From Escherichia coli (lineage in GTDB: Bacteria > Pseudomonadota > Gammaproteobacteria > Enterobacterales > Enterobacteriaceae), in NCBI RefSeq assembly GCF_044324875.1, contig NZ_CP172185.1: a DNA stretch of 64,000 nt; one strand, 5' to 3'. The position numbers were made by a program, and so were the translations under genes. This document shows, piece by piece, positions 38,268-56,592 of this stretch; positions within the stretch are counted from its first letter, which is position 1, and the number at the start of each line of letters is the position of its first letter. The notes beneath the pieces are model-generated. The model ran no database searches and was not told where the DNA came from. It saw nothing but the letters and a program-made list of their open reading frames with translations.

Positions 38268-40547
38268 ATGGATGACCAGTTAAAACAAAGTGCACTTGAT
38301 TTCCATGAATTTCCAGTTCCAGGGAAAATCCAGGTTTCTCCAACCAAGCCTCTGGCAACGCAGCGCGATCTGGCGCTGGCCTACTCACCAGGCGTTGCCG
38401 CACCTTGTCTTGAAATCGAAAAAGACCCGTTAAAAGCCTACAAATATACCGCGCGCGGTAACCTGGTGGCGGTGATCTCTAACGGTACGGCGGTGCTGGG
38501 GTTAGGCAACATTGGCGCGCTGGCGGGCAAACCGGTGATGGAAGGCAAGGGCGTTCTGTTTAAGAAATTCGCCGGGATTGATGTATTTGACATTGAAGTT
38601 GATGAACTCGACCCGGACAAATTTATTGAAGTCGTCGCCGCGCTTGAACCGACCTTCGGCGGCATCAACCTCGAAGACATTAAAGCGCCAGAATGTTTCT
38701 ATATTGAACAGAAACTGCGCGAGCGGATGAATATTCCGGTATTCCACGACGATCAGCACGGCACGGCAATCATCAGCACTGCCGCCATCCTCAACGGTTT
38801 GCGCGTGGTGGAGAAAAACATCTCCGACGTGCGGATGGTGGTTTCCGGCGCGGGTGCCGCAGCAATCGCCTGTATGAACCTGCTGGTAGCGCTGGGTCTG
38901 CAAAAACATAACATCGTGGTTTGCGACTCAAAAGGCGTTATCTATCAGGGCCGTGAGCCAAACATGGCGGAAACCAAAGCCGCATATGCGGTGGTGGATG
39001 ACGGCAAACGTACCCTCGATGATGTGATTGAAGGCGCGGATATTTTCCTGGGATGTTCCGGCCCGAAAGTGCTGACCCAGGAAATGGTGAAGAAAATGGC
39101 CCGTGCGCCAATGATCCTGGCGCTGGCGAACCCGGAACCGGAAATTCTGCCGCCGCTGGCGAAAGAAGTGCGTCCGGATGCCATCATCTGTACCGGCCGT
39201 TCCGACTACCCGAACCAGGTGAACAACGTTCTTTGCTTCCCGTTCATCTTCCGTGGCGCGCTGGACGTTGGCGCAACCGCCATCAACGAAGAGATGAAAC
39301 TGGCGGCGGTACGCGCGATTGCAGAACTGGCCCATGCGGAACAGAGCGAAGTGGTGGCTTCAGCGTATGGCGATCAGGATCTGAGCTTTGGTCCGGAATA
39401 CATCATTCCAAAACCGTTTGATCCGCGCTTGATCGTCAAGATCGCTCCTGCGGTGGCGAAAGCGGCGATGGAGTCGGGCGTGGCGACGCGTCCGATTGCT
39501 GATTTCGACGTCTACATCGACAAGCTGACGGAGTTCGTTTACAAAACCAACCTGTTTATGAAGCCGATTTTTTCCCAGGCTCGCAAAGCGCCGAAGCGCG
39601 TCGTTCTGCCGGAAGGTGAAGAGGCGCGCGTTCTGCATGCCACTCAGGAACTGGTAACGCTGGGGCTGGCGAAACCGATCCTTATCGGTCGTCCGAACGT
39701 GATCGAAATGCGCATTCAGAAACTGGGCTTGCAGATCAAAGCGGGTGTTGATTTTGAGATCGTCAATAACGAATCCGATCCGCGCTTTAAAGAGTACTGG
39801 ACTGAATACTTCCAGATCATGAAGCGTCGCGGTGTCACTCAGGAACAGGCGCAGCGTGCATTGATCAGTAACCCGACAGTGATCGGCGCAATCATGGTTC
39901 AGCGTGGCGAAGCCGATGCAATGATCTGCGGTACGGTGGGCGATTATCATGAACATTTTAGCGTGGTGAAAAATGTCTTTGGTTATCGCGATGGCGTTCA
40001 CACCGCAGGTGCCATGAACGCGCTGCTGCTGCCGAGTGGTAACACCTTTATTGCCGATACATACGTCAATGACGAACCAGACGCAGAAGAGCTGGCGGAG
40101 ATCACCTTGATGGCGGCAGAAACTGTTCGTCGTTTTGGTATTGAGCCGCGTGTGGCTCTGTTGTCGCACTCCAACTTTGGTTCTTCTGACTGCCCGTCGT
40201 CGAGCAAAATGCGTCAGGCGCTGGAACTGGTCAGGGAACGTGCACCAGAACTGATGATTGATGGTGAAATGCACGGCGATGCAGCGCTGGTGGAAGCGAT
40301 TCGCAATGACCGTATGCCGGACAGCCCTTTGAAAGGTTCCGCTAATATTCTGGTGATGCCGAACATGGAAGCTGCCCGCATTAGTTACAACTTATTGCGC
40401 GTTTCCAGCTCGGAAGGTGTGACTGTCGGCCCGGTGCTGATGGGTGTGGCGAAACCGGTTCACGTGTTAACGCCGATCGCATCGGTACGTCGTATCGTCA
40501 ACATGGTGGCGCTGGCTGTGGTTGAAGCGCAAACCCAACCGCTGTAA
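38268..40547 (+). CDS. maeB: NADP-dependent malic enzyme (malic enzyme domain fused to PTA-like domain)
   Basis: 759 aa, two-domain architecture. Confidence 0.96.
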
Positions 40548-40564
40548 TTCATTCTTAACTCTCA

Positions 40565-40597
40565 CGCTTACCCTGAATATTCAGGGTAAGCGGTTTT
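40565..40597 (+). terminator. Rho-independent terminator after maeB
   Basis: Perfect 12-bp stem cgcttaccctga/tcagggtaagcg, 4-nt loop, then GTTTTCC. Confidence 0.75.
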
Positions 40598-40839
40598 CCT
40601 GAAATATATTAGTAAAGCTTATTACTGAGTTTACGAATAATAAAAAAAGCAGTATATGAAATATCTCGATATTATTTTATTTATATTCATGCGTCGCATA
40701 TGAAAGTTTATTCATAACAGTAAATATCTCTCCATTCTTAGTGATCTACCTCACCTTTTAAACGCGCTTGCCGAATTTTGTTATTTACTCTGACGAAAAA
40801 TTGTCACGATACACGAAAGTTTTTCACAGGCGGCGACTC

Positions 40840-41175
40840 ATGGATAAAGAACGCATCATTCAGGAATTTGTGCCCGGCAAACAGGTCACGCTGGCGCATC
40901 TCATCGCGCATCCCGGCGAGGAACTGGCGAAGAAAATCGGCGTTCCTGATGCGGGCGCAATCGGCATTATGACGCTAACTCCTGGCGAAACGGCGATGAT
41001 CGCCGGTGATTTAGCATTGAAAGCCGCTGATGTGCATATCGGTTTTCTCGACCGCTTCAGCGGTGCATTGGTGATTTATGGCTCGGTGGGCGCAGTAGAA
41101 GAAGCATTATCACAAACCGTCAGCGGTTTAGGTCGCTTATTAAATTATACGCTTTGTGAAATGACCAAAAGTTAA
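40840..41175 (+). CDS. eutS: Ethanolamine utilisation microcompartment shell protein EutS (BMC domain)
   Basis: 111 aa from ATG 40840 ([23 protein letters not shown]...); track ORF is extended 24 codons into the promoter. Confidence 0.9.
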
Positions 41176-41187
41176 TACGAGGCATTC

Positions 41188-41667
41188 ATGAAACGAATTG
41201 CGTTTGTGGGTACCGTCGGGGCAGGAAAAACAACGTTATTTAATGCGTTGCAGGGGAATTATACCCTCGCCAGAAAAACACAGACCGTGGAATTTAATGA
41301 TAAGGGCGATATTGATACGCCGGGTGAATATTTTAGCCATCCCCGCTGGTATCACGCCTTAATTACCACGCTACAGGATGTGGACATGCTGATCTATGTC
41401 CATGGCGCAAATGACCCGGAAAGCCGATTGCCTGCCGGGTTGCTGGATATTGGCGTCAGCAAACGGCAAATCGCCATCATCAGTAAAACGGACATGCCGG
41501 ATGCTGACGTCGCCGCAACGCGAAAGTTATTGCTTGAGACGGGCTTCGAGGAGCCGATTTTCGAGCTAAACAGCCACGACCCGCAAAGCGTGCAGCAACT
41601 GGTGGATTATCTGGCATCTCTCACCAAACAGGAGGAAGCAGGTGAAAAAACTCATCACAGCGAATGA
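41188..41667 (+). CDS. eutP: Ethanolamine utilisation GTPase/acetate-kinase-like protein EutP
   Basis: 159 aa; Walker A GTVGAGKTT. Confidence 0.92.
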   Translation: MKRIAFVGTVGAGKTTLFNALQGNYTLARKTQTVEFNDKGDIDTPGEYFSHPRWYHALITTLQDVDMLIYVHGANDPESRLPAGLLDIGVSKRQIAIISKTDMPDADVAATRKLLLETGFEEPIFELNSHDPQSVQQLVDYLASLTKQEEAGEKTHHSE

Positions 41668-42343
41668 TATTCGTGAAGCACACGCGCGCGGCGAACAGGC
41701 AATGTCCGTGGTTCTGCGCGCCAGCATTATTACCCCGGAAGCCCGTGAAGTGGCAGATCTACTGGGTTTTACCATCACTGAATGTGATGAATCGACCCCG
41801 GTAACGGCGTCCGTTCCCGCCAGCGTGCCAGCCGATAAAACCGAAAGCCAGCGCATCCGCGAAACCATCATCGCCCAGCTACCGGAAGGCCAGTTTACCG
41901 AAAGCCTGGTCGCGCAGCTGATGGAAAAAGTGATGAAGGAAAAACAGTCACTGGAGCAGGGTGCAATGCAGCCGAGTTTCAAATCGGTTACCGGCAAAGG
42001 CGGCATCAAAGTTATTGATGGCAGCAGCGTCAAGTTTGGTCGTTTTGACGGCGCACAGCCACACTGCGTCGGATTAACGGATCTGGTCACCGGAGACGAC
42101 GGCAGCAGCATGGCCGCTGGTTTTATGCAGTGGGAGAACGCCTTCTTCCCGTGGACCCTGAACTATGACGAAATCGACATGGTACTGGAAGGGGAACTGC
42201 ACGTTCGCCACGAAGGCGAAACCATGATCGCCAAAGCAGGCGACGTGATGTTTATCCCGAAAGGCTCCAGCATCGAATTTGGTACGACATCCAGCGTGAA
42301 ATTCCTGTATGTCGCCTGGCCGGCTAACTGGCAATCCCTATGA
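41642..42343 (+). CDS. eutQ: Ethanolamine utilisation cupin-fold protein EutQ
   Basis: 233 aa; GTG start overlapping the eutP 3' end by 26 nt. Confidence 0.9.
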   Translation: MKKLITANDIREAHARGEQAMSVVLRASIITPEAREVADLLGFTITECDESTPVTASVPASVPADKTESQRIRETIIAQLPEGQFTESLVAQLMEKVMKEKQSLEQGAMQPSFKSVTGKGGIKVIDGSSVKFGRFDGAQPHCVGLTDLVTGDDGSSMAAGFMQWENAFFPWTLNYDEIDMVLEGELHVRHEGETMIAKAGDVMFIPKGSSIEFGTTSSVKFLYVAWPANWQSL

Positions 42344-43143
42344 AAGATTTCATCACCGAAGCATGGCTAAGAGCGAACCATACGCTCAGCGAAGGCGCAG
42401 AGATCCATCTCCCTGCGGACAGTCGCCTGACGCCCTCTGCCCGGGAGTTGCTGGAAAGCCGCCATCTGCGCATCAAGTTTATTGACGAGCAGGGCCGCCT
42501 GTTTGTTGACGATGAACAGCAGCAGCCGCAGCCCGTTCATGGGCTGACCAGTAGCGATGAACATCCGCAGGCGTGCTGCGAACTGTGCCGCCAGCCGGTA
42601 GCAAAAAAGCCGGATACGCTGACTCACCTGTCGGCGGAAAAAATGGTCGCCAAAAGCGATCCGCGCCTGGGTTTTCGCGCTGTTCTCGACAGCACCATTG
42701 CGCTGGCAGTGTGGCTGCAAATTGAACTGGCAGAACCGTGGCAGCCATGGCTGGCGGACATCCGCTCGCGTCTTGGCAACATTATGCGCGCCGATGCGCT
42801 CGGGGAACCGCTGGCCTACCAGGCGATTGTCGGGCTTTCTGACGAAGATCTGCATCGGCTTTCTCATCAGCCGCTGCGCTATCTCGACCACGATCATCTG
42901 GTGCCGGAAGCCAGCCACGGGCGCGATGCTGCGTTGCTCAATCTGCTACGCACCAAAGTGCGGGAAACCGAAACCGTAGCGGCGCAGGTGTTTATAACCC
43001 GCAGTTTTGAAGTATTACGCCCGGACATCTTGCAGGCGCTGAACCGCCTTTCGAGCACGGTCTACGTGATGATGATCCTGAGCGTAACGAAGCAGCCTCT
43101 AACGGTGAAGCAGATCCAACAACGACTGGGGGAAACGCAATGA
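42340..43143 (+). CDS. eutT: Ethanolamine utilisation cob(I)alamin adenosyltransferase EutT
   Basis: 267 aa; 4-nt overlap with eutQ stop. Confidence 0.92.
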
Positions 43144-44156
43144 TTATTGAACGTTGTCGTGAACTGGCGTTGCGAGCGCCCGCCAGAGTGGTTTTTCCGG
43201 ATGCGTTAGATCAACGTGTGCTGAAAGCCGCGCAATATTTACATCAACAAGGTCTGGCAACGCCCATTCTGGTCGCCAATCCGTTTGAACTTCGTCAGTT
43301 TGCGCTCAGTCACGGCGTGGCGATGGACGGGCTACAGGTGATAGATCCGCATGGCAACCTCGCAATGCGGGAAGAATTTGCTCTCCGCTGGCTGGCCCGT
43401 GCGGGCGAAAAAACGCCGCCGGATGCGTTGGAAAAACTCACCGATCCGCTGATGTTCGCTGCCGCAATGGTCAGCGCCGGGACAGCGGATGTCTGTATCG
43501 CGGGCAATCTCTCTTCCACGGCGAATGTGCTGCGTGCCGGATTACGCATTATTGGCTTACAGCCAGGCTGTAAAACGCTCTCCTCCATTTTCCTGATGCT
43601 GCCACAGTACAGCGGTCCGGCGTTGGGTTTTGCCGATTGCAGCGTGGTACCACAGCCGACGGCGGCACAACTGGCGGATATCGCGCTTGCCAGCGCCGAA
43701 ACCTGGCGCGCCATCACCGGAGAAGAGCCGCGCGTGGCGATGTTGTCGTTTTCCAGTAACGGCAGCGCCCGTCACCCCTGCGTTGCCAATGTCCAGCAGG
43801 CGACAGAAATCGTCCGTGAGCGCGCGCCGCAGTTGGTAGTCGATGGCGAGTTGCAGTTTGACGCCGCCTTCGTGCCGGAAGTGGCGGCGCAAAAAGCGCC
43901 TGCCAGCCCGCTACAAGGCAAGGCCAATGTGATGGTTTTTCCGTCGCTGGAAGCCGGAAATATTGGCTACAAAATCGCACAACGACTCGGCGGATATCGT
44001 GCCGTCGGGCCATTGATACAAGGACTTGCCGCGCCGATGCACGATCTCTCTCGTGGTTGTAGCGTGCAGGAAATTATCGAGCTGGCGCTGGTGGCAGCTG
44101 TGCCGCGTCAGACAGAAGTAAACCGTGAAAGCAGTTTACAAACACTGGTTGAATGA
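43140..44156 (+). CDS. eutD: Phosphotransacetylase EutD (EutI)
   Basis: 338 aa PTA-family protein; 4-nt overlap with eutT. Confidence 0.93.
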
Positions 44157-44194
44157 ACGGTCCCGTTCTGGACCCTGATAAAGAGGAAAGCACA

Positions 44195-44488
44195 ATGGAA
44201 GCATTAGGAATGATCGAAACCCGGGGCCTGGTTGCACTGATTGAGGCTTCTGACGCGATGGTGAAAGCTGCGCGCGTCAAGCTGGTTGGTGTTAAGCAGA
44301 TTGGCGGCGGCCTGTGTACTGCCATGGTTCGTGGTGATGTTGCAGCCTGTAAAGCCGCGACCGACGCAGGTGCTGCAGCGGCACAGCGTATCGGCGAGCT
44401 GGTATCTGTACACGTTATCCCGCGTCCGCACGGCGACCTGGAAGAAGTCTTCCCGATCGGCCTGAAAGGCGATAGCAGCAACCTGTAA
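44195..44488 (+). CDS. eutM: Major microcompartment shell protein EutM (BMC domain hexamer)
   Basis: 97 aa from ATG 44195 ([28 protein letters not shown]...); AAGAGGAAAG SD; track ORF is extended 14 codons. Confidence 0.93.
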
Positions 44489-44497
44489 TCACCCTGT

Positions 44498-44556
44498 GTG
44501 ACGTCGATTCGGGCGTCACGCTCTCTCCTTTTTCAGTTTACCTTCCGCGGAAGGTA
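44498..44556 (+). promoter_or_regulatory. Two stem-loops in the eutM-eutN spacer (candidate intra-operon attenuator or mRNA processing/stability element)
   Basis: Hairpin gtgacg/cgtcac followed by T-run, then 18-bp perfect palindrome taccttccgcggaaggta. Confidence 0.45.
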
Positions 44557-44594
44557 GGGGGAGCTTTTACCTGAAATACGCCACGGAGGCGGGT

Positions 44595-44882
44595 ATGAAA
44601 CTGGCAGTCGTCACTGGACAAATTGTTTGTACCGTACGCCATCACGGACTGGCGCATGACAAATTGCTGATGGTGGAAATGATTGATCCACAAGGTAATC
44701 CTGACGGGCAATGCGCCGTCGCCATCGACAATATTGGCGCGGGAACCGGGGAGTGGGTGTTGCTGGTGAGTGGCAGTTCTGCCCGCCAGGCGCATAAAAG
44801 CGAAACGTCACCGGTCGATCTGTGCGTGATTGGCATCGTCGATGAGGTGGTGACTGGCGGTCAGGTAATTTTCCACAAATAA
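44595..44882 (+). CDS. eutN: Microcompartment vertex protein EutN (EutN/CcmL pentamer family)
   Basis: 95 aa; GGAGG SD upstream. Confidence 0.92.
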   Translation: MKLAVVTGQIVCTVRHHGLAHDKLLMVEMIDPQGNPDGQCAVAIDNIGAGTGEWVLLVSGSSARQAHKSETSPVDLCVIGIVDEVVTGGQVIFHK

Positions 44883-44893
44883 GGCAGAACATC

Positions 44894-46297
44894 ATGAATC
44901 AACAGGATATTGAACAGGTGGTGAAAGCGGTACTGCTGAAAATGCAAAGCAGTGATACGCCGCCCGCCGCCGTTCATGAGATGGGCGTTTTCGCGTCCCT
45001 GGATGACGCCGTTGCGGCAGCCAAAATTGCCCAGCAAGGGTTAAAAAGCGTGGCAATGCGCCAGTTAGCCATTGCTGCCATTCGTGAGGCAGGCGAAAAA
45101 CACGCCAGAGATTTAGCGGAACTTGCCGTCAGTGAAACCGGCATGGGCCGCGTTGAAGATAAATTTGCCAAAAACGTCGCTCAGGCGCGCGGCACGCCAG
45201 GCGTTGAGTGTCTCTCTCCGCAGGTGCTGACCGGCGACAACGGCCTGACCTTAATTGAAAACGCGCCCTGGGGCGTAGTGGCTTCGGTGACGCCTTCCAC
45301 TAACCCGGCGGCAACCGTAATTAACAATGCCATCAGCCTGATTGCGGCGGGCAACAGCGTCATTTTTGCCCCGCATCCGGCGGCGAAAAAAGTCTCCCAG
45401 CGGGCGATCACGCTGCTCAACCAGGCGATTGTTGCCGCAGGCGGGCCGGAAAACTTACTGGTTACTGTGGCAAATCCGGATATCGAAACCGCGCAACGCT
45501 TGTTCAAGTTTCCGGGTATCGGCCTGCTGGTGGTGACCGGCGGCGAAGCGGTAGTAGAAGCGGCACGTAAACACACCAATAAACGTCTGATTGCCGCAGG
45601 CGCTGGCAACCCGCCGGTAGTGGTGGATGAAACCGCTGACCTCGCCCGTGCTGCTCAGTCCATCGTCAAAGGCGCGTCTTTCGATAACAACATCATTTGT
45701 GCCGACGAAAAGGTACTGATTGTTGTGGATAGCGTAGCCGATGAACTGATGCGTCTGATGGAAGGCCAGCACGCGGTGAAACTGACCGCAGAGCAGGCGC
45801 AGCAGCTGCAACCGGTGTTGCTGAAAAATATCGACGAGCGCGGAAAAGGCACCGTCAGCCGTGACTGGGTTGGTCGCGATGCGGCGAAAATCGCGGCGGC
45901 AATCGGCCTTAAAGTTCCGGAACAAACGCGACTGCTGTTTGTAGAAACCACCGCAGAACATCCGTTTGCTGTGACTGAACTGATGATGCCGGTGCTGCCC
46001 GTCGTGCGCGTCGCCAACGTGGCGGATGCCATTGCGCTGGCGGTGAAACTGGAAGGCGGTTGCCATCACACGGCGGCAATGCACTCGCGCAACATCGAGA
46101 ACATGAACCAGATGGCGAACGCCATTGATACCAGCATTTTCGTTAAGAACGGACCGTGCATTGCCGGGCTGGGGCTGGGCGGGGAAGGCTGGACCACCAT
46201 GACCATCACCACGCCAACCGGTGAAGGGGTAACCAGCGCGCGTACGTTTGTCCGTCTGCGTCGCTGTGTATTAGTTGATGCGTTTCGCATTGTTTAA
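44894..46297 (+). CDS. eutE: CoA-acylating acetaldehyde dehydrogenase EutE
   Basis: 467 aa aldehyde dehydrogenase-family protein. Confidence 0.93.
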   Translation: MNQQDIEQVVKAVLLKMQSSDTPPAAVHEMGVFASLDDAVAAAKIAQQGLKSVAMRQLAIAAIREAGEKHARDLAELAVSETGMGRVEDKFAKNVAQARGTPGVECLSPQVLTGDNGLTLIENAPWGVVASVTPSTNPAATVINNAISLIAAGNSVIFAPHPAAKKVSQRAITLLNQAIVAAGGPENLLVTVANPDIETAQRLFKFPGIGLLVVTGGEAVVEAARKHTNKRLIAAGAGNPPVVVDETADLARAAQSIVKGASFDNNIICADEKVLIVVDSVADELMRLMEGQHAVKLTAEQAQQLQPVLLKNIDERGKGTVSRDWVGRDAAKIAAAIGLKVPEQTRLLFVETTAEHPFAVTELMMPVLPVVRVANVADAIALAVKLEGGCHHTAAMHSRNIENMNQMANAIDTSIFVKNGPCIAGLGLGGEGWTTMTITTPTGEGVTSARTFVRLRRCVLVDAFRIV

Positions 46298-46307
46298 GGA
46301 GTAACCG

Positions 46308-47144
46308 ATGGCGCACGACGAACAATGGCTCATCCCGCGTCTGCAAACGGCGGCAACGCTGTGTAACCAGACGCCTGCCGCAACGGAATCTCCGCTGTGG
46401 CTGGGGGTGGATCTGGGCACCTGCGATGTGGTGTCGATGGTTGTCGACCGCGACGGTCAGCCGGTGGCGGTATGCCTCGACTGGGCTGATGTGGTCCGCG
46501 ACGGCATCGTCTGGGATTTCTTCGGTGCGGTCACCATTGTTCGTCGCCATCTTGACACCCTCGAGCAGCAATTCGGTCGCCGTTTTAGCCATGCGGCGAC
46601 CTCTTTTCCTCCAGGTACGGACCCGCGTATTTCCATCAACGTGCTGGAGTCTGCCGGGCTGGAAGTGAGCCATGTGCTGGATGAGCCAACCGCAGTCGCG
46701 GATCTGCTGCAACTGGACAACGCCGGTGTAGTGGATATCGGCGGCGGCACCACCGGCATTGCCATCGTGAAAAAGGGCAAGGTGACTTACTCGGCAGATG
46801 AAGCCACCGGCGGACATCACATCTCTCTGACTCTCGCCGGAAATCGTCGTATTTCGCTGGAGGAGGCAGAGCAGTACAAGCGCGGTCACGGTGAAGAGAT
46901 TTGGCCCGCGGTGAAACCGGTGTACGAAAAAATGGCGGACATTGTCGCCCGGCATATTGAAGGGCAGGGCATTACTGATTTATGGCTGGCGGGCGGCTCT
47001 TGTATGCAACCGGGCGTGGCGGAACTGTTTCGCAAACAATTCCCGGCGTTACAGGTGCATTTACCGCAGCACAGTTTGTTTATGACCCCGCTGGCGATCG
47101 CCAGTAGCGGGCGAGAGAAAGCGGAGGGGATCTATGCAAAATGA
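46308..47144 (+). CDS. eutJ: Ethanolamine utilisation chaperone-like protein EutJ (actin/Hsp70 fold)
   Basis: 278 aa; VDIGGGTTGIA phosphate-binding loop. Confidence 0.92.
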   Translation: MAHDEQWLIPRLQTAATLCNQTPAATESPLWLGVDLGTCDVVSMVVDRDGQPVAVCLDWADVVRDGIVWDFFGAVTIVRRHLDTLEQQFGRRFSHAATSFPPGTDPRISINVLESAGLEVSHVLDEPTAVADLLQLDNAGVVDIGGGTTGIAIVKKGKVTYSADEATGGHHISLTLAGNRRISLEEAEQYKRGHGEEIWPAVKPVYEKMADIVARHIEGQGITDLWLAGGSCMQPGVAELFRKQFPALQVHLPQHSLFMTPLAIASSGREKAEGIYAK

Positions 47145-48321
47145 ATTGCAGACCGCGCTCTTTCAGGCGTTCGATACCCTGAATCTGCAACGGGTAAAAA
47201 CATTTAGCGTTCCACCGGTGACGCTTTGCGGTCCGGGCGCGGTGAGCAGTTGTGGGCAGCAAGCGCAAACGCGTGGGCTGAAACATCTGTTCGTGATGGC
47301 AGACAGCTTTTTGCATCAGGCAGGGATGACCGCCGGGCTGACGCGTAGCCTGGCCGTTAAAGGTATCGCCATGACGCTCTGGCCATGTCCGGTGGGCGAA
47401 CCATGCATCACCGACGTGTGTGCAGCCGTGGCGCAGTTGCGTGAATCAGGCTGTGACGGGGTGATTGCGTTTGGCGGCGGCTCGGTGCTGGATGCAGCAA
47501 AAGCCGTGGCGTTGCTGGTGACGAACCCGGATAGCACGCTGGCAGAGATGTCAGAAACCAGCGTTCTGCAACCGCGCCTGCCGTTGATTGCCATTCCAAC
47601 GACCGCCGGAACCGGCTCTGAAACCACCAACGTAACGGTGATTATCGACGCGGTGAGCGGGCGCAAGCAGGTGTTAGCCCATGCCTCGCTGATGCCGGAT
47701 GTGGCGATTCTCGACGCTGCGCTGACCGAAGGCGTGCCGTCGCATGTCACGGCGATGACCGGTATCGACGCGTTAACCCATGCTATTGAAGCGTACAGCG
47801 CGCTGAACGCCACACCGTTTACCGACAGCCTGGCGATTGGTGCCATTGCGATGATTGGCAAATCGCTGCCGAAAGCGGTGGGCTACGGTCACGACCTTGC
47901 CGCCCGCGAGAGCATGTTGCTGGCTTCATGTATGGCGGGAATGGCGTTTTCCAGTGCGGGGCTTGGGTTGTGCCACGCGATGGCGCATCAGCCAGGGGCG
48001 GCGCTGCATATTCCGCACGGTCTGGCGAACGCCATGCTACTGCCAACGGTGATGGAGTTTAACCGGATGGTCTGTCGTGAACGCTTTAGTCAGATTGGTC
48101 GGGCGCTGCGAACTAAAAAATCCGACGATCGTGACGCTATTAACGCGGTAAGTGAGCTGATTGCGGAAGTCGGGATTGGTAAACGACTGGGCGATATTGG
48201 TGCGACATCTGCGCATTACGGCGCATGGGCGCAGGCCGCGCTGGAAGATATTTGTCTGCGCAGCAACCCGCGTACCGCCAGCCTGGAGCAGATTATTGGT
48301 CTGTATGCTGCGGCGCAATAA
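47134..48321 (+). CDS. eutG: Iron-containing alcohol dehydrogenase EutG
   Basis: 395 aa; GGGSVLD motif; overlaps eutJ 3' end by 11 nt. Confidence 0.93.
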   Translation: MQNELQTALFQAFDTLNLQRVKTFSVPPVTLCGPGAVSSCGQQAQTRGLKHLFVMADSFLHQAGMTAGLTRSLAVKGIAMTLWPCPVGEPCITDVCAAVAQLRESGCDGVIAFGGGSVLDAAKAVALLVTNPDSTLAEMSETSVLQPRLPLIAIPTTAGTGSETTNVTVIIDAVSGRKQVLAHASLMPDVAILDAALTEGVPSHVTAMTGIDALTHAIEAYSALNATPFTDSLAIGAIAMIGKSLPKAVGYGHDLAARESMLLASCMAGMAFSSAGLGLCHAMAHQPGAALHIPHGLANAMLLPTVMEFNRMVCRERFSQIGRALRTKKSDDRDAINAVSELIAEVGIGKRLGDIGATSAHYGAWAQAALEDICLRSNPRTASLEQIIGLYAAAQ

Positions 48322-48325
48322 AAGT

Positions 48326-48440
48326 GTACGGACAGTCCCCTCGCCCCTTTGGGGAGAGGGTTAGGGTGAGGGGAACAGAGTCGCGCCGGTGCAAATAATT
48401 ACCCTCACCCCGACCCCTCGGCTTCCAGAGTGAGGGAAAA
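48326..48440. repeat. GC-rich extragenic repeat, copy 2 plus partial inverted copy (eutG-eutH gap)
   Basis: gtacggacagtcccctcgcccctttggggagagggttagggtgaggggaaca, then ccctcaccc 28 nt downstream as an inverted partner of gggtgaggg. Confidence 0.7.
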
Positions 48441-48490
48441 ACCCACTTTCAGCATTGGCAATAAATAACAACTAACAGGGAGTAAAGGCG

Positions 48491-49717
48491 ATGGGAATTA
48501 ACGAAATCATCATGTACATCATGATGTTCTTTATGCTGATAGCTGCCGTAGACAGGATCCTGTCGCAGTTCGGCGGTTCTGCTCGTTTCCTCGGTAAGTT
48601 CGGTAAAAGTATCGAAGGATCAGGCGGTCAGTTCGAAGAAGGCTTTATGGCAATGGGCGCACTGGGCCTGGCGATGGTCGGTATGACCGCGCTGGCACCG
48701 GTACTGGCTCACGTACTCGGGCCGGTGATTATCCCGGTTTACGAAATGCTCGGCGCAAACCCATCGATGTTCGCCGGAACACTGCTGGCGTGCGATATGG
48801 GCGGCTTCTTCCTCGCCAAAGAGCTGGCGGGCGGCGACGTAGCAGCGTGGCTATACTCTGGGTTAATTCTCGGGTCGATGATGGGGCCAACGATTGTGTT
48901 TTCCATTCCGGTGGCGCTCGGCATTATCGAACCTTCTGACCGTCGTTATCTGGCGCTCGGCGTGCTGGCGGGCATTGTGACCATTCCGATTGGCTGTATT
49001 GCCGGTGGTCTGGTGGCTATGTATTCCGGTGTGCAGATCAACGGTCAGCCAGTGGAATTCACCTTTGCCCTGATCCTGATGAACATGATCCCGGTACTTA
49101 TCGTCGCGGTACTGGTGGCGCTGGGGCTGAAATTCATCCCGGAAAAAATGATCAACGGCTTCCAGATCTTCGCCAAATTCCTCGTTGCATTGATCACCCT
49201 CGGTCTTGCCGCTGCGGTAGTGAAATTCCTGCTCGGTTGGGAACTGATCCCCGGTCTGGATCCGATCTTCATGGCTCCAGGCGATAAACCCGGTGAAGTG
49301 ATGCGCGCCATTGAAGTTATCGGTTCTATCTCCTGCGTGCTGTTAGGGGCGTACCCGATGGTACTGCTGCTGACCCGCTGGTTTGAAAAACCGCTGATGA
49401 GCGTCGGTAAGGTGCTGAATATGAACAACATCGCGGCAGCTGGCATGGTGGCAACGCTTGCCAACAACATCCCAATGTTTGGCATGATGAAGCAGATGGA
49501 TACCCGCGGCAAAGTCATCAACTGCGCCTTCGCCGTTTCCGCTGCTTTCGCCCTGGGTGACCACTTAGGCTTCGCCGCTGCCAACATGAACGCCATGATT
49601 TTCCCGATGATTGTCGGCAAGTTGATCGGCGGCGTAACGGCGATTGGCGTGGCGATGATGCTGGTGCCAAAAGAAGACGCGACCGCGGCCAAAACCGAAG
49701 CGGAGGCACAATCGTGA
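48491..49717 (+). CDS. eutH: Ethanolamine permease EutH
   Basis: 408 aa polytopic membrane protein. Confidence 0.93.
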   Translation: MGINEIIMYIMMFFMLIAAVDRILSQFGGSARFLGKFGKSIEGSGGQFEEGFMAMGALGLAMVGMTALAPVLAHVLGPVIIPVYEMLGANPSMFAGTLLACDMGGFFLAKELAGGDVAAWLYSGLILGSMMGPTIVFSIPVALGIIEPSDRRYLALGVLAGIVTIPIGCIAGGLVAMYSGVQINGQPVEFTFALILMNMIPVLIVAVLVALGLKFIPEKMINGFQIFAKFLVALITLGLAAAVVKFLLGWELIPGLDPIFMAPGDKPGEVMRAIEVIGSISCVLLGAYPMVLLLTRWFEKPLMSVGKVLNMNNIAAAGMVATLANNIPMFGMMKQMDTRGKVINCAFAVSAAFALGDHLGFAAANMNAMIFPMIVGKLIGGVTAIGVAMMLVPKEDATAAKTEAEAQS

Positions 49718-51117
49718 ACACTCGCCAGCTACTGAGCGTCGGTATCGATATCGGCACCACCACCACCCAGGTGATCTTCTCCCACCTGGAGCTGGTTAAC
49801 CGTGCGGCGGTGTCGCAGGTGCCGCGCTACGAATTCATCAAACGCGAAATTAGCTGGCAAAGCCCGGTGTTCTTTACCCCTGTCGATAAACAGGGTGGTT
49901 TAAAAGAAGCGGAACTGAAATCGCTGATTTTAGAGCAATATCAGGCTGCGGGCATTGCGCCGGAAAGCGTTGATTCTGGTGCCATCATCATCACCGGTGA
50001 AAGCGCGAAAACCCGCAACGCTCGCCCGGCGGTGATGACGCTCTCCCAGTCGCTGGGCGATTTTGTCGTCGCCAGCGCCGGGCCGCATCTCGAATCCGTG
50101 ATCGCCGGTCACGGTGCCGGGGCGCAAACCCTTTCTGAACAACGGCTGTGTCGGGTACTGAATATCGACATCGGCGGTGGCACCGCGAACTACGCCCTGT
50201 TCGATGCCGGAAAAATCAGCGGCACTGCCTGCCTCAACGTCGGTGGTCGCCTGCTGGAAACCGACAGCCAGGGGCGCGTGGTTTACGCTCATAAACCGGG
50301 GCAGATGATTGTGGATGAGTGCTTCGGTGCAGGCAGTGACGCCCGTTCGCTGACCGGCGCGCAGCTGGTGCAGGTTACCCGCCGGATGGCAGAGCTGATT
50401 GTCGAAGTGATTGACGGAACGCTCTCGCCGCTCGCGCAGGCATTAATGCAAACCGGTTTGCTGCCCGCAGGTGTTACGCCCGAAATCATTACGCTTTCTG
50501 GCGGCGTGGGCGAATGTTATCGCCACCAGCCCGCCGCCCCGTTCTGTTTTGCCGATATCGGCCCGCTGCTGGCAACGGCGCTGTATGACCATCCGCGCCT
50601 GCGTGAGATGAACGTGCAGTTTCCGGCGCAAACCGTGCGCGCCACGGTGATTGGCGCGGGTGCACATACCCTTTCGCTCTCTGGCAGCACAATCTGGCTG
50701 GAGGGCGTCCAACTGCCGCTGCGCAATTTGCCGGTGGCGATCCCGATTGATGAAACGGATCTGGTGAGTGCCTGGCAACAGGCGCTGATTCAGCTGGATC
50801 TTGATCCCAAAACTGACGCGTACGTGCTGGCGCTTCCCGCCTCGCTGCCTGTGCGTTACGCCGCGGTACTGACGGTCATCAACGCGCTGGTCGATTTCGT
50901 CGCGCGTTTTCCGAATCCGCATCCCCTGTTGGTGGTGGCCGGGCAGGACTTTGGTAAAGCTCTGGGCATGTTGTTGCGCCCACAGCTACAACAACTCCCG
51001 TTGGCAGTCATTGACGAAGTGATTGTCCGCGCGGGGGACTATATCGACATTGGTACGCCTCTTTTTGGCGGATCGGTTGTGCCGGTGACGGTGAAATCAC
51101 TCGCATTTCCTTCCTGA
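49714..51117 (+). CDS. eutA: Ethanolamine ammonia-lyase reactivating factor EutA
   Basis: 467 aa; 4-nt overlap with eutH stop. Confidence 0.93.
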   Translation: MNTRQLLSVGIDIGTTTTQVIFSHLELVNRAAVSQVPRYEFIKREISWQSPVFFTPVDKQGGLKEAELKSLILEQYQAAGIAPESVDSGAIIITGESAKTRNARPAVMTLSQSLGDFVVASAGPHLESVIAGHGAGAQTLSEQRLCRVLNIDIGGGTANYALFDAGKISGTACLNVGGRLLETDSQGRVVYAHKPGQMIVDECFGAGSDARSLTGAQLVQVTRRMAELIVEVIDGTLSPLAQALMQTGLLPAGVTPEIITLSGGVGECYRHQPAAPFCFADIGPLLATALYDHPRLREMNVQFPAQTVRATVIGAGAHTLSLSGSTIWLEGVQLPLRNLPVAIPIDETDLVSAWQQALIQLDLDPKTDAYVLALPASLPVRYAAVLTVINALVDFVARFPNPHPLLVVAGQDFGKALGMLLRPQLQQLPLAVIDEVIVRAGDYIDIGTPLFGGSVVPVTVKSLAFPS

Positions 51118-51128
51118 GGGAACGACTT

Positions 51129-52496
51129 ATGAAACTAAAGACCACATTGTTCGGCAATGTATATCAGTTTAAGGATGTAAAAGAGGTGCTGGCTAAAGCC
51201 AACGAACTGCGTTCGGGGGATGTGCTGGCGGGCGTCGCAGCGGCAAGCTCACAGGAGCGCGTGGCGGCAAAGCAGGTGTTGTCGGAAATGACCGTAGCGG
51301 ACATCCGCAATAATCCGGTGATTGCTTATGAAGATGACTGCGTGACGCGGCTGATTCAGGACGACGTTAACGAAACGGCCTACAACCAGATTAAAAACTG
51401 GAGCATCAGCGAACTGCGTGAATACGTCCTGAGCGACGAAACCAGCGTTGACGACATTGCCTTTACCCGCAAAGGGTTGACCTCGGAAGTGGTCGCGGCG
51501 GTAGCGAAGATTTGCTCCAACGCGGACCTGATCTACGGCGCGAAGAAAATGCCGGTGATCAAAAAGGCCAATACCACCATCGGTATTCCGGGCACCTTCA
51601 GCGCCCGCTTGCAGCCAAACGACACCCGTGACGACGTGCAAAGTATCGCCGCGCAAATCTACGAAGGGCTTTCTTTCGGGGTGGGCGATGCGGTGATCGG
51701 CGTTAACCCGGTGACTGACGACGTGGAAAACTTAAGCCGCGTGTTGGACACCATCTATGGCGTGATCGACAAATACAACATTCCGACCCAGGGCTGCGTG
51801 CTGGCGCACGTCACCACCCAGATTGAAGCAATTCGTCGCGGCGCGCCTGGCGGACTGATTTTCCAGAGTATCTGCGGCAGCGAAAAAGGGCTGAAAGAGT
51901 TTGGCGTGGAACTGGCGATGCTCGACGAAGCGCGCGCAGTGGGCGCGGAGTTCAACCGTATCGCCGGGGAAAACTGCCTCTACTTCGAAACCGGACAAGG
52001 CTCTGCGCTATCCGCTGGCGCTAACTTCGGCGCAGACCAGGTGACGATGGAAGCGCGTAACTACGGGCTGGCGCGTCATTACGATCCGTTTATCGTCAAC
52101 ACCGTGGTCGGCTTTATTGGGCCGGAGTATCTCTACAACGACCGCCAGATTATCCGTGCGGGCTTAGAAGATCACTTTATGGGCAAGCTGAGCGGCATCT
52201 CTATGGGCTGTGACTGCTGCTACACCAACCACGCTGACGCTGACGCTGACCAGAACCTCAACGAAAACCTCATGATCCTGCTCGCCACCGCAGGCTGCAA
52301 CTACATCATGGGGATGCCGCTGGGCGATGACATCATGCTCAACTATCAGACCACCGCATTCCACGACACTGCCACTGTGCGTCAGTTACTCAACCTGCGC
52401 CCGTCACCGGAGTTTGAACGCTGGCTGGAAAGCATGGGCATTATGGCAAACGGTCGCCTGACCAAACGGGCGGGCGATCCGTCACTGTTCTTCTGA
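51129..52496 (+). CDS. eutB: Ethanolamine ammonia-lyase large (heavy) subunit
   Basis: 455 aa from ATG 51129 (MKLKTTLFGNVYQFKDVKEV...); contains in-frame (GCTGAC)3 repeat encoding ADADAD. Confidence 0.95.
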   Translation: MKLKTTLFGNVYQFKDVKEVLAKANELRSGDVLAGVAAASSQERVAAKQVLSEMTVADIRNNPVIAYEDDCVTRLIQDDVNETAYNQIKNWSISELREYVLSDETSVDDIAFTRKGLTSEVVAAVAKICSNADLIYGAKKMPVIKKANTTIGIPGTFSARLQPNDTRDDVQSIAAQIYEGLSFGVGDAVIGVNPVTDDVENLSRVLDTIYGVIDKYNIPTQGCVLAHVTTQIEAIRRGAPGGLIFQSICGSEKGLKEFGVELAMLDEARAVGAEFNRIAGENCLYFETGQGSALSAGANFGADQVTMEARNYGLARHYDPFIVNTVVGFIGPEYLYNDRQIIRAGLEDHFMGKLSGISMGCDCCYTNHADADADQNLNENLMILLATAGCNYIMGMPLGDDIMLNYQTTAFHDTATVRQLLNLRPSPEFERWLESMGIMANGRLTKRAGDPSLFF

Positions 52497-52516
52497 TGAC
52501 GCGGAGATAACACATC

Positions 52517-53404
52517 ATGGATCAAAAACAGATTGAAGAAATTGTACGCAGCGTGATGGCGTCAATGGGACAAGCGGCCCCCGCGCCGTCAGAAGCAAAG
52601 TGCGCCACCACCACCTGTGCGGCACCGGTGACCTCGGAAAGCTGCGCGCTGGACTTAGGCTCTGCGGAAGCAAAAGTGTGGATTGGTGTTGAAAACCCGC
52701 ATCGCGCAGACGTATTAACAGAACTGCGTCGCAGCACCGTGGCCCGCGTTTGTACCGGTCGTGCCGGTCCGCGTCCGCGTACCCAGGCGTTGCTGCGTTT
52801 CCTGGCCGATCACTCTCGTTCGAAAGATACCGTACTGAAAGAAGTGCCGGAAGAGTGGGTGAAAGCGCAGGGCTTGCTGGAAGTCCGCTCTGAAATTAGC
52901 GACAAAAATCTCTACCTGACTCGTCCGGATATGGGCCGCCGCCTGTGTGCAGAAGCTGTTGAAGCCCTGAAAGCACAGTGTGTTGCTAATCCGGACGTGC
53001 AGGTCGTTATTTCTGATGGCCTGTCAACTGATGCGATCACCGTGAACTACGAAGAGATCCTGCCGCCGCTGATGGCGGGCCTGAAACAGGCCGGGCTGAA
53101 AGTCGGTACGCCATTCTTTGTTCGTTATGGTCGCGTGAAGATTGAAGATCAGATCGGTGAGATCCTCGGCGCGAAAGTAGTGATCCTGCTGGTGGGGGAA
53201 CGCCCGGGATTAGGGCAGTCAGAAAGCCTCTCCTGCTACGCCGTTTACTCGCCGCGTATGGCGACCACCGTTGAGGCCGATCGCACCTGTATTTCTAACA
53301 TTCACCAGGGCGGCACGCCGCCGGTTGAAGCCGCAGCCGTCATTGTGGATTTGGCGAAACGTATGCTGGAGCAGAAAGCATCCGGCATCAACATGACCCG
53401 ATAA
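52517..53404 (+). CDS. eutC: Ethanolamine ammonia-lyase small (light) subunit
   Basis: 295 aa. Confidence 0.95.
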
Positions 53405-53413
53405 GGAGGCATC

Positions 53414-54073
53414 ATGCCAGCTTTAGATTTGATTCGACCGTCGGTCACCGCCATGCGGGTGATTGCCTCCGTTAACGCCGAATTTGCGCGTGAACTGAAA
53501 TTGCCGCCGCATATTCGTAGCCTCGGGCTGATTTCTGCTGATTCCGATGACGTCACCTACATTGCGGCTGACGAAGCGACCAAGCAGGCGATGGTCGAAG
53601 TGGTGTATGGCCGCTCGCTGTATGCGGGCGCTGCACACGGACCGTCACCGACTGCCGGTGAAGTGCTGATTATGCTCGGTGGGCCAAACCCGGCGGAAGT
53701 GCGTGCTGGTCTGGATGCGATGGTTGCGCATATTGAAAATGGCGCGGCTTTCCAGTGGGCTAATGATGCGCAAGATACGGCATTCCTGGCACATGTAGTT
53801 TCGCGTACCGGTTCTTATCTCTCATCAACCGCCGGGATCACGCTTGGCGATCCGATGGCGTATCTGGTGGCACCGCCGCTGGAAGCGACCTACGGCATTG
53901 ATGCAGCGTTGAAATCTGCCGACGTACAGCTGGTGACCTATGTCCCGCCACCGTCTGAAACCAACTACTCGGCAGCATTTTTAACCGGTAGCCAGGCCGC
54001 GTGTAAAGCAGCCTGTAACGCCTTTACCGATGCAGTGCTGGAAATCGCGCGTAATCCAATCCAGCGTGCGTAA
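53414..54073 (+). CDS. eutL: Microcompartment shell protein EutL (tandem BMC domain trimer)
   Basis: 219 aa. Confidence 0.93.
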
Positions 54074-54085
54074 CGGAGGTTGCCG

Positions 54086-54586
54086 ATGATCAATGCACTG
54101 GGATTGCTGGAAGTGGACGGCATGGTCGCCGCGATAGATGCAGCTGATGCCATGCTCAAAGCAGCTAACGTTCGTCTGCTCAGTCACGAAGTGCTTGACC
54201 CTGGTCGCCTAACGCTGGTGGTGGAAGGCGATCTGGCGGCGTGTCGTGCGGCGCTGGACGCAGGTTGTGCTGCCGCGATGCGTACCGGGCGTGTCATCAG
54301 CCGTAAGGAGATCGGTCGGCCAGACGATGACACCCAGTGGCTGGTTACTGGCTTTAACCGCCAGCCGAAGCAACCCGTAAAGGAACCCGACGCGCCAGTT
54401 ATCGTCGCGGAATCTGCTGACGAGTTGTTGGCGCTGTTAACATCAGTACGTCAGGGAATGACGGCAGGAGAAGTGGCAGCCCACTTTGGCTGGCCGCTGG
54501 AAAAAGCCAGAAATGCGCTCGAACAGCTCTTTTCTGCCGGGACGTTACGTAAACGCAGTAGTCGTTACCGTCTCAAGCCCCATTAA
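54086..54586 (+). CDS. eutK: Microcompartment shell protein EutK (BMC domain plus C-terminal nucleic-acid-binding-like domain)
   Basis: 166 aa from ATG 54086 (MINALGLLEVDGMVAAIDAADAMLKAANV...). Confidence 0.9.
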   Translation: MINALGLLEVDGMVAAIDAADAMLKAANVRLLSHEVLDPGRLTLVVEGDLAACRAALDAGCAAAMRTGRVISRKEIGRPDDDTQWLVTGFNRQPKQPVKEPDAPVIVAESADELLALLTSVRQGMTAGEVAAHFGWPLEKARNALEQLFSAGTLRKRSSRYRLKPH

Positions 54587-54598
54587 CCTGTCGGAGGT

Positions 54599-54622
54599 GC
54601 CGGGTGTCCTACAACACCCGGC
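54599..54622 (+). promoter_or_regulatory. Stem-loop in the eutK-eutR spacer
   Basis: Perfect 9-bp stem gccgggtgt/acacccggc with 6-nt loop, ending 10 nt before eutR ATG; flanked by direct cattaac repeats. Confidence 0.45.
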
Positions 54623-54631
54623 ATTAACATC

Positions 54632-55684
54632 ATGAAAAAGACCCGTACAGCCAATTTGCACCATCTTTATCATGAACCCTTACCCGAAAACCTGAAGCTC
54701 ACGCCGAAGGTCGAAGTGGATAATGTTCATCAACGACAGACAACGGACGTCTATGAACATGCTTTGACAATTACCGCCTGGCAGCAGATTTACGATCAGC
54801 TGCATCCGGGCAAGTTTCATGGTGAATTTACGGAAATTCTACTCGATGATATTCAGGTTTTTCGTGAATACACTGGTCTGGCGCTGCGTCAGTCGTGCCT
54901 GGTCTGGCCGAACTCGTTCTGGTTTGGCATTCCGGCGACGCGCGGTGAGCTGGGATTTATCGGTTCGCAATGTCTGGGAAGCGCAGAAATTGCGACGCGC
55001 CCGGGTGGAACTGAGTTTGAATTAAGTACGCCGGACGATTACACGATCCTTGGCGTAGTGCTTTCTGAAGATGTCATCACTCGTCAGGCTAACTTTTTGC
55101 ATAATCCGGATCGGGTATTACATATGCTGCGTAGCCAGTCGGCGCTGGAAGTGAAAGAGCAGCATAAAGCCGCGCTGTGGGGCTTTGTCCAACAGGCGCT
55201 GGCGACGTTTTGCGAGAACCCGGAAAATCTCCATCAGCCTGCAGTGCGAAAAGTGCTGGGGGATAATTTGCTCATGGCGATGGGGGCGATGCTGGAAGAA
55301 GCGCAGCCGATGATGACGGCGGAAAGCATCAGTCATCAGAGTTACCGTCGATTGCTTTCCCGCGCCCGTGAATATGTGCTGGAAAACATGTCCGAACCGG
55401 TGACGGTGCTGGACTTGTGTAATCAACTGCATGTCAGCCGCCGCACGCTACAAAACGCGTTTCACGCCATTTTGGGCATTGGTCCGAACGCGTGGCTGAA
55501 ACGTATTCGCCTGAACGCCGTGCGCCGCGAACTCATAAGTCCGTGGTCACAAAGCACAACGGTAAAAGACGCCGCCATGCAGTGGGGATTCTGGCATCTT
55601 GGGCAATTTGCCACGGATTATCAGCAACTGTTTGCCGAGAAGCCGTCACTGACGCTGCATCAGCGGATGCGAGAGTGGGGGTGA
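54632..55684 (+). CDS. eutR: AraC-family transcriptional activator of the eut operon
   Basis: 350 aa; C-terminal AraC-type HTH. Confidence 0.93.
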
Positions 55685-55689
55685 GGGAG

Positions 55690-56592
<903 letters not shown>

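Follow-up and report, generated by a model that had tools for sequence, protein, structure and literature searches.

The 26-nt overlap between eutP and eutQ in the Escherichia coli eut operon is probably an evolutionary by-product, with eutQ mainly initiated directly and translational coupling likeliest at the junctions that overlap by 4 nt, above all from eutQ to eutT; we give this reading a probability of roughly three in four. The stretch of DNA that was analyzed (64,000 nt; referred to as the window) contains a complete Escherichia eut operon on the plus strand (eutS to eutR, approximately positions 40840-55684), flanked by maeB and hemF. Its 17 genes follow the order eutSPQTDMNEJGHABCLKR, the same as in the annotated loci of strains A10 and K-12, and by gene content and order it is an enterobacterial 17-gene eut operon. 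Positions 40700-44200 match 5,415 of 5,426 complete E. coli genomes, most at 95-99% identity and the best (A10) at 99.1%. All eight Eut proteins tested (EutP, Q, T, D, J, G, H, and A) exceed the cutoff of their best NCBIfam model, which is an equivalog for seven of them, EutD being the exception. An Rfam scan of positions 40000-56000 returned no family at the gathering score. The CPZ-55 prophage that K-12 carries between eutA and eutB is absent from the window. Two further strain differences were noted: eutB contains (GCTGAC)x3 at 52233-52250 versus x2 in K-12 and A10, so that the third GCTGAC adds Ala-Asp and EutB has 455 rather than 453 residues; and in A10 (L001, 7307-9310) the annotation marks a neighboring transketolase gene as a pseudogene that contains an internal stop.

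The features of the operon that bear on the overlaps are collected in Table 1. All five overlaps listed in a preliminary description of this DNA exist at the lengths given there, with open reading frames (ORFs) and RefSeq annotation in agreement, and RefSeq A10 and K-12 MG1655 have the identical five overlaps at identical lengths (eutP and eutQ being b2461 and b2460 in the RefSeq/EcoGene annotation of K-12). The 70-nt eutP/eutQ junction is 100% identical in 5,358 of the 5,409 matching E. coli records. The word "pervasive," used earlier for these overlaps, overstates the case. Overlapping junctions number 5 of 16 (31%); at the others the genes are separated, mostly by 9-45 nt and in two cases by 106 and 169 nt. 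Up to about one-third of prokaryotic genes overlap a neighbor, more than 80% of overlaps are shorter than 30 bp, and the most frequent class is -4 (PMC12548453); because 5/16 is close to the one-third of genes generally, the operon is typical in its overlap rate. The start/stop overlaps of the eut operon are thus ordinary, are already annotated in E. coli, and constitute a known feature.

Table 1. Coordinates of coding sequences (CDS), initiation signals, overlaps, and spacers in the eut operon of the window
Feature	Position	Strand	Length (nt)	Remarks
eutP CDS	41188..41667	+		159 aa; EutP/PduV small GTPase-like acetate kinase; stop TGA at 41665-41667
eutQ SD, AGGAGG	41630..41635	+		Inside eutP codons (Gln-Glu-Glu), 6 nt before GTG
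eutQ CDS	41642..42343	+		233 aa; GTG start
eutP/eutQ overlap	41642..41667	+	26	eutQ in +1 frame relative to eutP
Internal in-frame ATG, eutQ Met21	41702..41704	+		Sole ATG alternative after the eutP stop; rejected as start
eutQ/eutT overlap	42340..42343	+	4	ATGA; eutT without SD (anti-SD -1.7 kcal/mol)
eutT CDS	42340..43143	+		267 aa; NF011595 matches residues 1-267
eutT/eutD overlap	43140..43143	+	4	ATGA
eutM-eutN spacer	44489..44594	+	106	-44.5 kcal/mol, z -1.94; the only clearly structured one among the folded shell-gene spacers
eutJ/eutG overlap	47134..47144	+	11	eutG ATG start; SD GGAGGGG
eutG-eutH spacer	48322..48490	+	169	z -2.39; most structured spacer; not beside a shell gene
eutH/eutA overlap	49714..49717	+	4	GTGA; eutA GTG start; SD GGAGG
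Other spacers, eutS to eutJ			S-P 12; D-M 38; N-E 11; E-J 10
Other spacers, eutA to eutR			A-B 11; B-C 20; C-L 9; L-K 12; K-R 45

A GTG start for eutQ at 41642, as originally proposed, is well supported by comparative evidence: the Shine-Dalgarno (SD) sequence, the position of the codon as the 5'-most start, the conserved N terminus, and variation at third positions all favor it. The anti-SD duplex of the eutQ SD (-10.3 kcal/mol) is among the strongest in the operon, and AGGAGG is kept in 28 of 29 aligned enteric sequences, with AGGAGA in the other (L005). The GTG is the 5'-most NTG of the eutQ ORF; the nearest in-frame upstream stop lies at 41567, and there is no start in between. In a search of 1.8 billion cluster representatives, the 38 full-length EutQ homologs (27-87% identity) all open with M-K-K-L-I-T/S-A at a common alignment column. 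We also compared 80 genome loci, located with a 9-sequence alignment and spanning Enterobacterales to Pseudomonas, Chromobacterium, Rhodocyclales, and Vibrio. In most of these loci, a start codon stands opposite eutQ residue 1; members of the Escherichia/Salmonella/Citrobacter/Klebsiella clade use GTG and the others ATG, and five distant loci have an ATG one codon upstream. Across the 29 enteric sequences, variable sites in the overlap number 0/8, 1/8, and 6/7 at eutQ codon positions 1, 2, and 3, respectively; because the variable sites sit at eutQ third positions, eutQ is the constrained frame within the overlap.

A eutQ start downstream of the eutP stop, the outcome named beforehand as fatal to the proposed start, was checked by sequence comparison, and the evidence places the start at 41642 instead. 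It is very improbable that eutQ starts at ATG 41702 or GTG 41708 and that the overlap is an annotation artifact. There is an in-frame ATG at codon 21, past the eutP stop, and the full-length NCBIfam match is circular as evidence for the annotated start, since the model was built from annotated proteins. However, conservation of residues 2-20 extends from enterics to Vibrio and Rhodocyclales, and the substitutions there are of the synonymous type, whereas Met21 is replaced by Ile, Leu, or Val in other enterics (codons ATA, CTC, TTG, or GTA). An SD is absent before 41702, in contrast to the consensus SD before 41642; the paralogous module of EutT aligns from EutQ residue 1; and EutQ residues 1-99, counted from the annotated start, fold and target green fluorescent protein (GFP) to the compartment (PMC12487888). 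Both downstream starts were rejected on the conservation of residues 1-20 and the lack of conservation of Met21; either would remove the conserved N-terminal helix.

EutQ matches PF06249 (cupin) at residues 85-232 (E value, 3e-69) and NF012001 at residues 1-233, and it is a member of the NF012001/PF06249 cupin acetate kinase family with the N-terminal helical region MKKLITA. Protein Data Bank (PDB) structures for EutQ cover the C-terminal cupin domain only (2PYT, residues 102-232; 4AXO), and a PDB search returned no match for EutP at an E value of <=1e-5. EutP matches NF012011 at residues 1-159 and PF10662 at residues 1-143. The first 43 or so residues of EutQ and EutT are homologous, residue 1 to residue 1 (BLASTP, 34% identity, E value of 1e-3; hhalign, probability of 88%, E value of 3.5e-6), and this alignment supports both start codons. 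The shared module, at 41642-41770 (EutQ 1-43) and 42340-42468 (EutT 1-43), reads MK.(L/F)IT..(I/L)R......G......(I/L)TP.AR., is covered by no model in a Pfam scan, and may be a shared compartment-association element. The NCBIfam EutA equivalog NF007991 (model positions 2-88) also hits EutQ residues 6-92 (41657-41917; 36 bits; E value, 3e-9). BLASTP found no similarity between the EutQ N terminus and the N terminus of EutA in the window, and the match looks like the product of a contaminated or chimeric model seed.

As for the other starts, PF01515 matches EutD from residue 1. The eutA GTG with GGAGG and the eutG ATG with GGAGGG are conserved in a Klebsiella locus (L083) and in a relative of 68% identity (L084). 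The eutJ/eutG overlap is 11 nt in the former and 8 nt in the latter, and in the latter a 1-nt spacer replaces the eutH/eutA overlap. Overlaps of eutT and eutD occur in 70 of 73 scorable sequences, with computed lengths of 1, 4, 7, or 11 nt.

The eutP/eutQ junction was compared in 81 sequences (the window plus the 80 loci), and an overlap is present in 56 of them. Its length varies: 23 nt in 24 sequences, 4 nt (ATGA) in 19, with 2 more that have their ATG one codon upstream and score as 1 nt, 26 nt in 8 including the window, and 17 nt in 3. A spacer of 4-42 nt separates the genes in about 17-20 sequences, and the remaining ones have insertions or truncations or are those in which eutP was not found. 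Lengths of 23 and 26 nt differ by a single eutQ-synonymous change at Ala7, in which GCT gives TAA and GCG gives GAA in the eutP frame; with GCG, the eutP frame terminates at the TGA inside AAT-GAT. In the overlap, eutQ third positions are eutP first positions. EutP tails are short and variable past the conserved ...YL(A) core and differ in length and sequence between genera, and the Glu-Glu of the EutP tail is a readout of the eutQ GAGGA SD. A test for dual-coding (overprinted) sequence found no purifying selection acting in both frames of the overlap, the EutP tail changing freely. In two loci, Citrobacter amalonaticus S646 and Intestinirhabdus alba (L028, approximately 2830-3000; L032, approximately 2900-3000), the 3' end of eutP has apparent extra sequence that truncates EutP and leaves the old tail, the eutQ SD, and the GTG intact.

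These comparisons are best explained by the following origin of the overlap. The eutQ ribosome-binding site (RBS; AGGAGG, 6 nt, and GTG) and the first eight or nine eutQ codons fall within the last 13 codons of eutP. Buttiauxella, Pseudomonas, and many other lineages still end the eutP frame at the NTGA of the eutQ start, a stop that the Escherichia/Salmonella/Citrobacter/Klebsiella clade and a few other enterics no longer have. Once past it, eutP runs on to the first stop offered by the constrained codons of eutQ, either TAA at 23 nt or TGA at 26 nt, and the resulting EutP tail (...QEEAGEKTHHSE) is dictated by the eutQ SD and N-terminal codons and is itself unconstrained. A run-on of 23-26 nt past a bypassed upstream stop is unremarkable by chance.

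The overlaps had previously been taken to indicate tight translational coupling. That idea holds in part: short overlaps are a classic setting for coupling, best supported here at eutQ/eutT, but the largest overlap is unlikely to mark the tightest coupling. This last point rests on spacing studies, the strong eutQ SD, the excess of EutQ over EutP, and the variable length of the overlap. Coupling efficiency peaks at -4 to +3 nt and drops faster with more overlap than with more spacing, and in systematic E. coli constructs it was absent at about -25 nt (PMC12548453). In the operon, the eutQ/eutT, eutT/eutD, and eutH/eutA junctions (-4) fall within the -4 to +3 window, whereas eutP/eutQ (-26) and eutJ/eutG (-11) do not. 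Anti-SD pairing is weak for eutP (-5.9 kcal/mol), compared with -10.3 for eutQ, -10.0 for eutG, -9.5 for eutA, -8.4 for eutD, and -1.7 for eutT. Among the downstream genes, eutT alone is without an effective RBS of its own; eutQ, eutG, eutA, and eutD each have one.

Published E. coli proteomics (iBAQ, ethanolamine plus B12) identifies EutQ as the most abundant Eut protein, set at 100, with EutP at 7 +/- 1 (PMC11334477). The downstream output thus exceeds the upstream output at eutP/eutQ, the reverse of what is expected of a coupled pair. Re-initiation cannot exceed the number of eutP termination events and so does not explain an approximately 14-fold excess of EutQ over EutP, although protein stability or iBAQ bias may account for part of this 14:1 ratio. 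EutD stands at 10 versus 100 for EutQ, with EutT not among the quantified proteins (PMC11334477), and the excess of EutQ over EutD is compatible with re-initiation further down. A scan for consensus sigma-70 sites found no promoter-like site in eutP upstream of eutQ. These data point to direct initiation at the strong SD of eutQ itself as the probable main route of its translation. Standard ribosome-profiling conditions leave the eut genes silent.

The contrary proposal, that every overlap and especially the 26-nt one exists for tight coupling, with re-initiation fixing the stoichiometry, is unlikely. The genes are codirectional, terminator and promoter are absent between them, the eutP/eutQ overlap recurs in 56/81 sequences, and the coat-lysis pairs of phages fr and MS2 are coupled at -38 and -50 nt (PMC12548453). 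The abundance ratio, the SD of eutQ, and the absence of coupling at -25 nt in the systematic constructs argue against it, as does the overlap length, which is unconserved and is set by a eutQ-synonymous site. The two genes overlap or lie within 15 nt of each other in most lineages, and some selection for proximity, hence some coupling, is possible. A search of one literature collection found no paper that joins "eut operon" with "translational coupling."

An RNA-based mechanism was also considered, in which ribosomes translating eutP open a helix that masks the eutQ start and thereby license initiation; we regard it as quite unlikely. The eutP codons GAU-UAU-CUG (UUAUCUG) can pair with CAGGUGA, a segment containing the eutQ start, and the SD would be covered by a weak pairing of UCUCU with GGAGG. 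The conserved 7-bp helix UUAUCUG/CAGGUGA is predicted both in the single-sequence fold and in the 12-species consensus (covariation term, +0.15 kcal/mol), and a change from GUG to AUG retains the pair (U.G to U-A). The helix is nevertheless only 7 bp with two G.U pairs, closing a 28-nt loop; compensatory changes are absent from it, and coding constraints fix both arms. Moreover, the predicted fold of the junction does not stand out from that of shuffled sequence (z +0.86; 160 of 200 shuffles equal or better it), and EutQ is far above EutP in abundance. The arrangement might otherwise act as a ratio setter opposite in sense to coupling, with eutP translation tuning rather than driving EutQ output and helping to hold EutP:EutQ at about 1:14. 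Under this decidedly doubtful scenario, the eutQ SD and start, being embedded in translated eutP codons, would be briefly blocked or exposed by ribosomes completing eutP, perhaps via the UUAUCUG/CAGGUGA pairing.

The junction also contains an A6 run, in GTGAAAAAAC, at which a programmed +1 shift or transcriptional slippage could in principle yield an EutP-EutQ fusion. Upstream of the GTG, the eutQ frame stays open over 75 nt, and databases contain EutP-EutQ fusion ORFs of 384-396 aa. These fusions, however, come from single-base losses at differing positions, as expected of sporadic mutations or assembly errors; the A run is unconserved (AAGAAA in Klebsiella and others); and the junction, identical in nearly all E. 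coli records, is annotated as separate genes in the records listed. An A6 run is short for slippage. With scattered single-base deletions behind the database fusions and an unconserved A run, programmed recoding was rejected as exceedingly improbable. The deletions in the fusion ORFs (P0004, P0005, P0013, and P0107) fall in the last 75 or so nucleotides of eutP (41567-41667), where the eutQ frame is open, and a 243-aa variant (P0003) can be traced to an A6 run shortened by one A.

The -4 junctions are the likeliest sites of termination-reinitiation, above all eutQ to eutT, where eutT is without an SD of its own. Coupling is most credible at eutQ/eutT, judging from its sequence features. In all 19 sequences with an ATGA overlap, eutT is without an SD (-1.5 to -2.3 kcal/mol), compared with a median of -7.5 kcal/mol in the 41 loci with a eutQ/eutT spacer of 2-76 nt, the 19 being essentially one clade and representing few independent events. 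In this clade, the bases upstream of eutT are also fixed by the conserved EutQ C terminus. The eutT/eutD and eutH/eutA junctions combine the -4 motif with an SD, and eutJ/eutG combines -11 with a strong SD. In Citrobacter sp. NCU1 (L014), a 156-nt gap separates eutQ and eutT.

The overlaps had been contrasted with "structured spacers around shell genes." Overlaps occur at 0 of 7 shell-gene junctions versus 5 of 9 others (hypergeometric one-sided p of about 0.03, from a small sample and a post hoc test). Of the shell-gene spacers, we folded eutD-eutM and eutM-eutN; the others are short (9-45 nt). The claim applies to eutM-eutN but not to eutD-eutM (z +1.03), and the most structured spacer of all, eutG-eutH, has no shell neighbor. 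Immediately after eutM comes a terminator-like element (44496-44521), a GC-rich hairpin of 10 bp with a T-rich tail, and a second stem-loop follows it. In published proteomics, EutM stands at 96 and EutN at 1, and the eutM-eutN spacer may set the shell-protein ratio via attenuation or transcript stabilization. The eutG-eutH spacer contains a G-rich imperfect palindrome (GGGGAGAGGGTTAGGGTGAGGGG ... CCCTCACCCCGACCCCTC); at the same position, K-12 (216 nt) and A10 (515 nt) carry different, REP-type repeat arrays. The intergenic content at eutG-eutH is swapped between strains.

An overlap of eutP and eutQ has been stated explicitly for Salmonella enterica LT2, in which a deletion design kept the first nine eutQ codons on account of it (Yang et al., Sci Adv 2025; PMC12487888). 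The window shares with LT2 and K-12 the gene pair, the GTG position, and the SD, and with K-12 the identical 26 nt. The two Salmonella loci compared here (subsp. arizonae and diarizonae) differ in having a 23-nt overlap (Ala7 GCT, giving TAA), whereas Escherichia has GCG and a TGA 3 nt later. NTGA (-4) termination-reinitiation pairs are known from, e.g., the E. coli trp operon (Huber et al. 2019, PMC6728339; 2023, PMC10666635; PMC12548453). The eutQ/eutT, eutT/eutD, and eutH/eutA junctions resemble them in carrying ATGA or GTGA, and eutT resembles them further in being without an SD, as expected for a start that depends on re-initiation; eutP/eutQ and eutJ/eutG differ from them, lying outside both the enriched -4, -1, and -8 classes and the efficient spacing window. 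The fr and MS2 coat-lysis pairs, for which back-scanning or unfolding mechanisms have been demonstrated (PMC12548453), are similar to eutP/eutQ in that the downstream start precedes the upstream stop by tens of nucleotides. In contrast to the phage lysis genes, whose translation needs coat termination according to the same review, eutQ has a consensus SD and encodes the most abundant Eut protein.

The present analysis contributes comparative support for the GTG start, an origin for the 23/26-nt run-on, and a shift of the best coupling candidate from eutP/eutQ to eutQ/eutT. Its value is mostly practical, and it exposes no new biology. EutQ is an abundant shell-cargo linker of the compartment, and deletion or tagging of eutP must retain approximately the last 40 nt (the SD and the overlap), or eutQ will be disrupted. 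Changes at the 3' end of eutQ probably affect eutT, which is without its own SD. More generally, a long overlap should not be read as a sign of stronger coupling; in this case it represents the run-on of a dispensable EutP tail.
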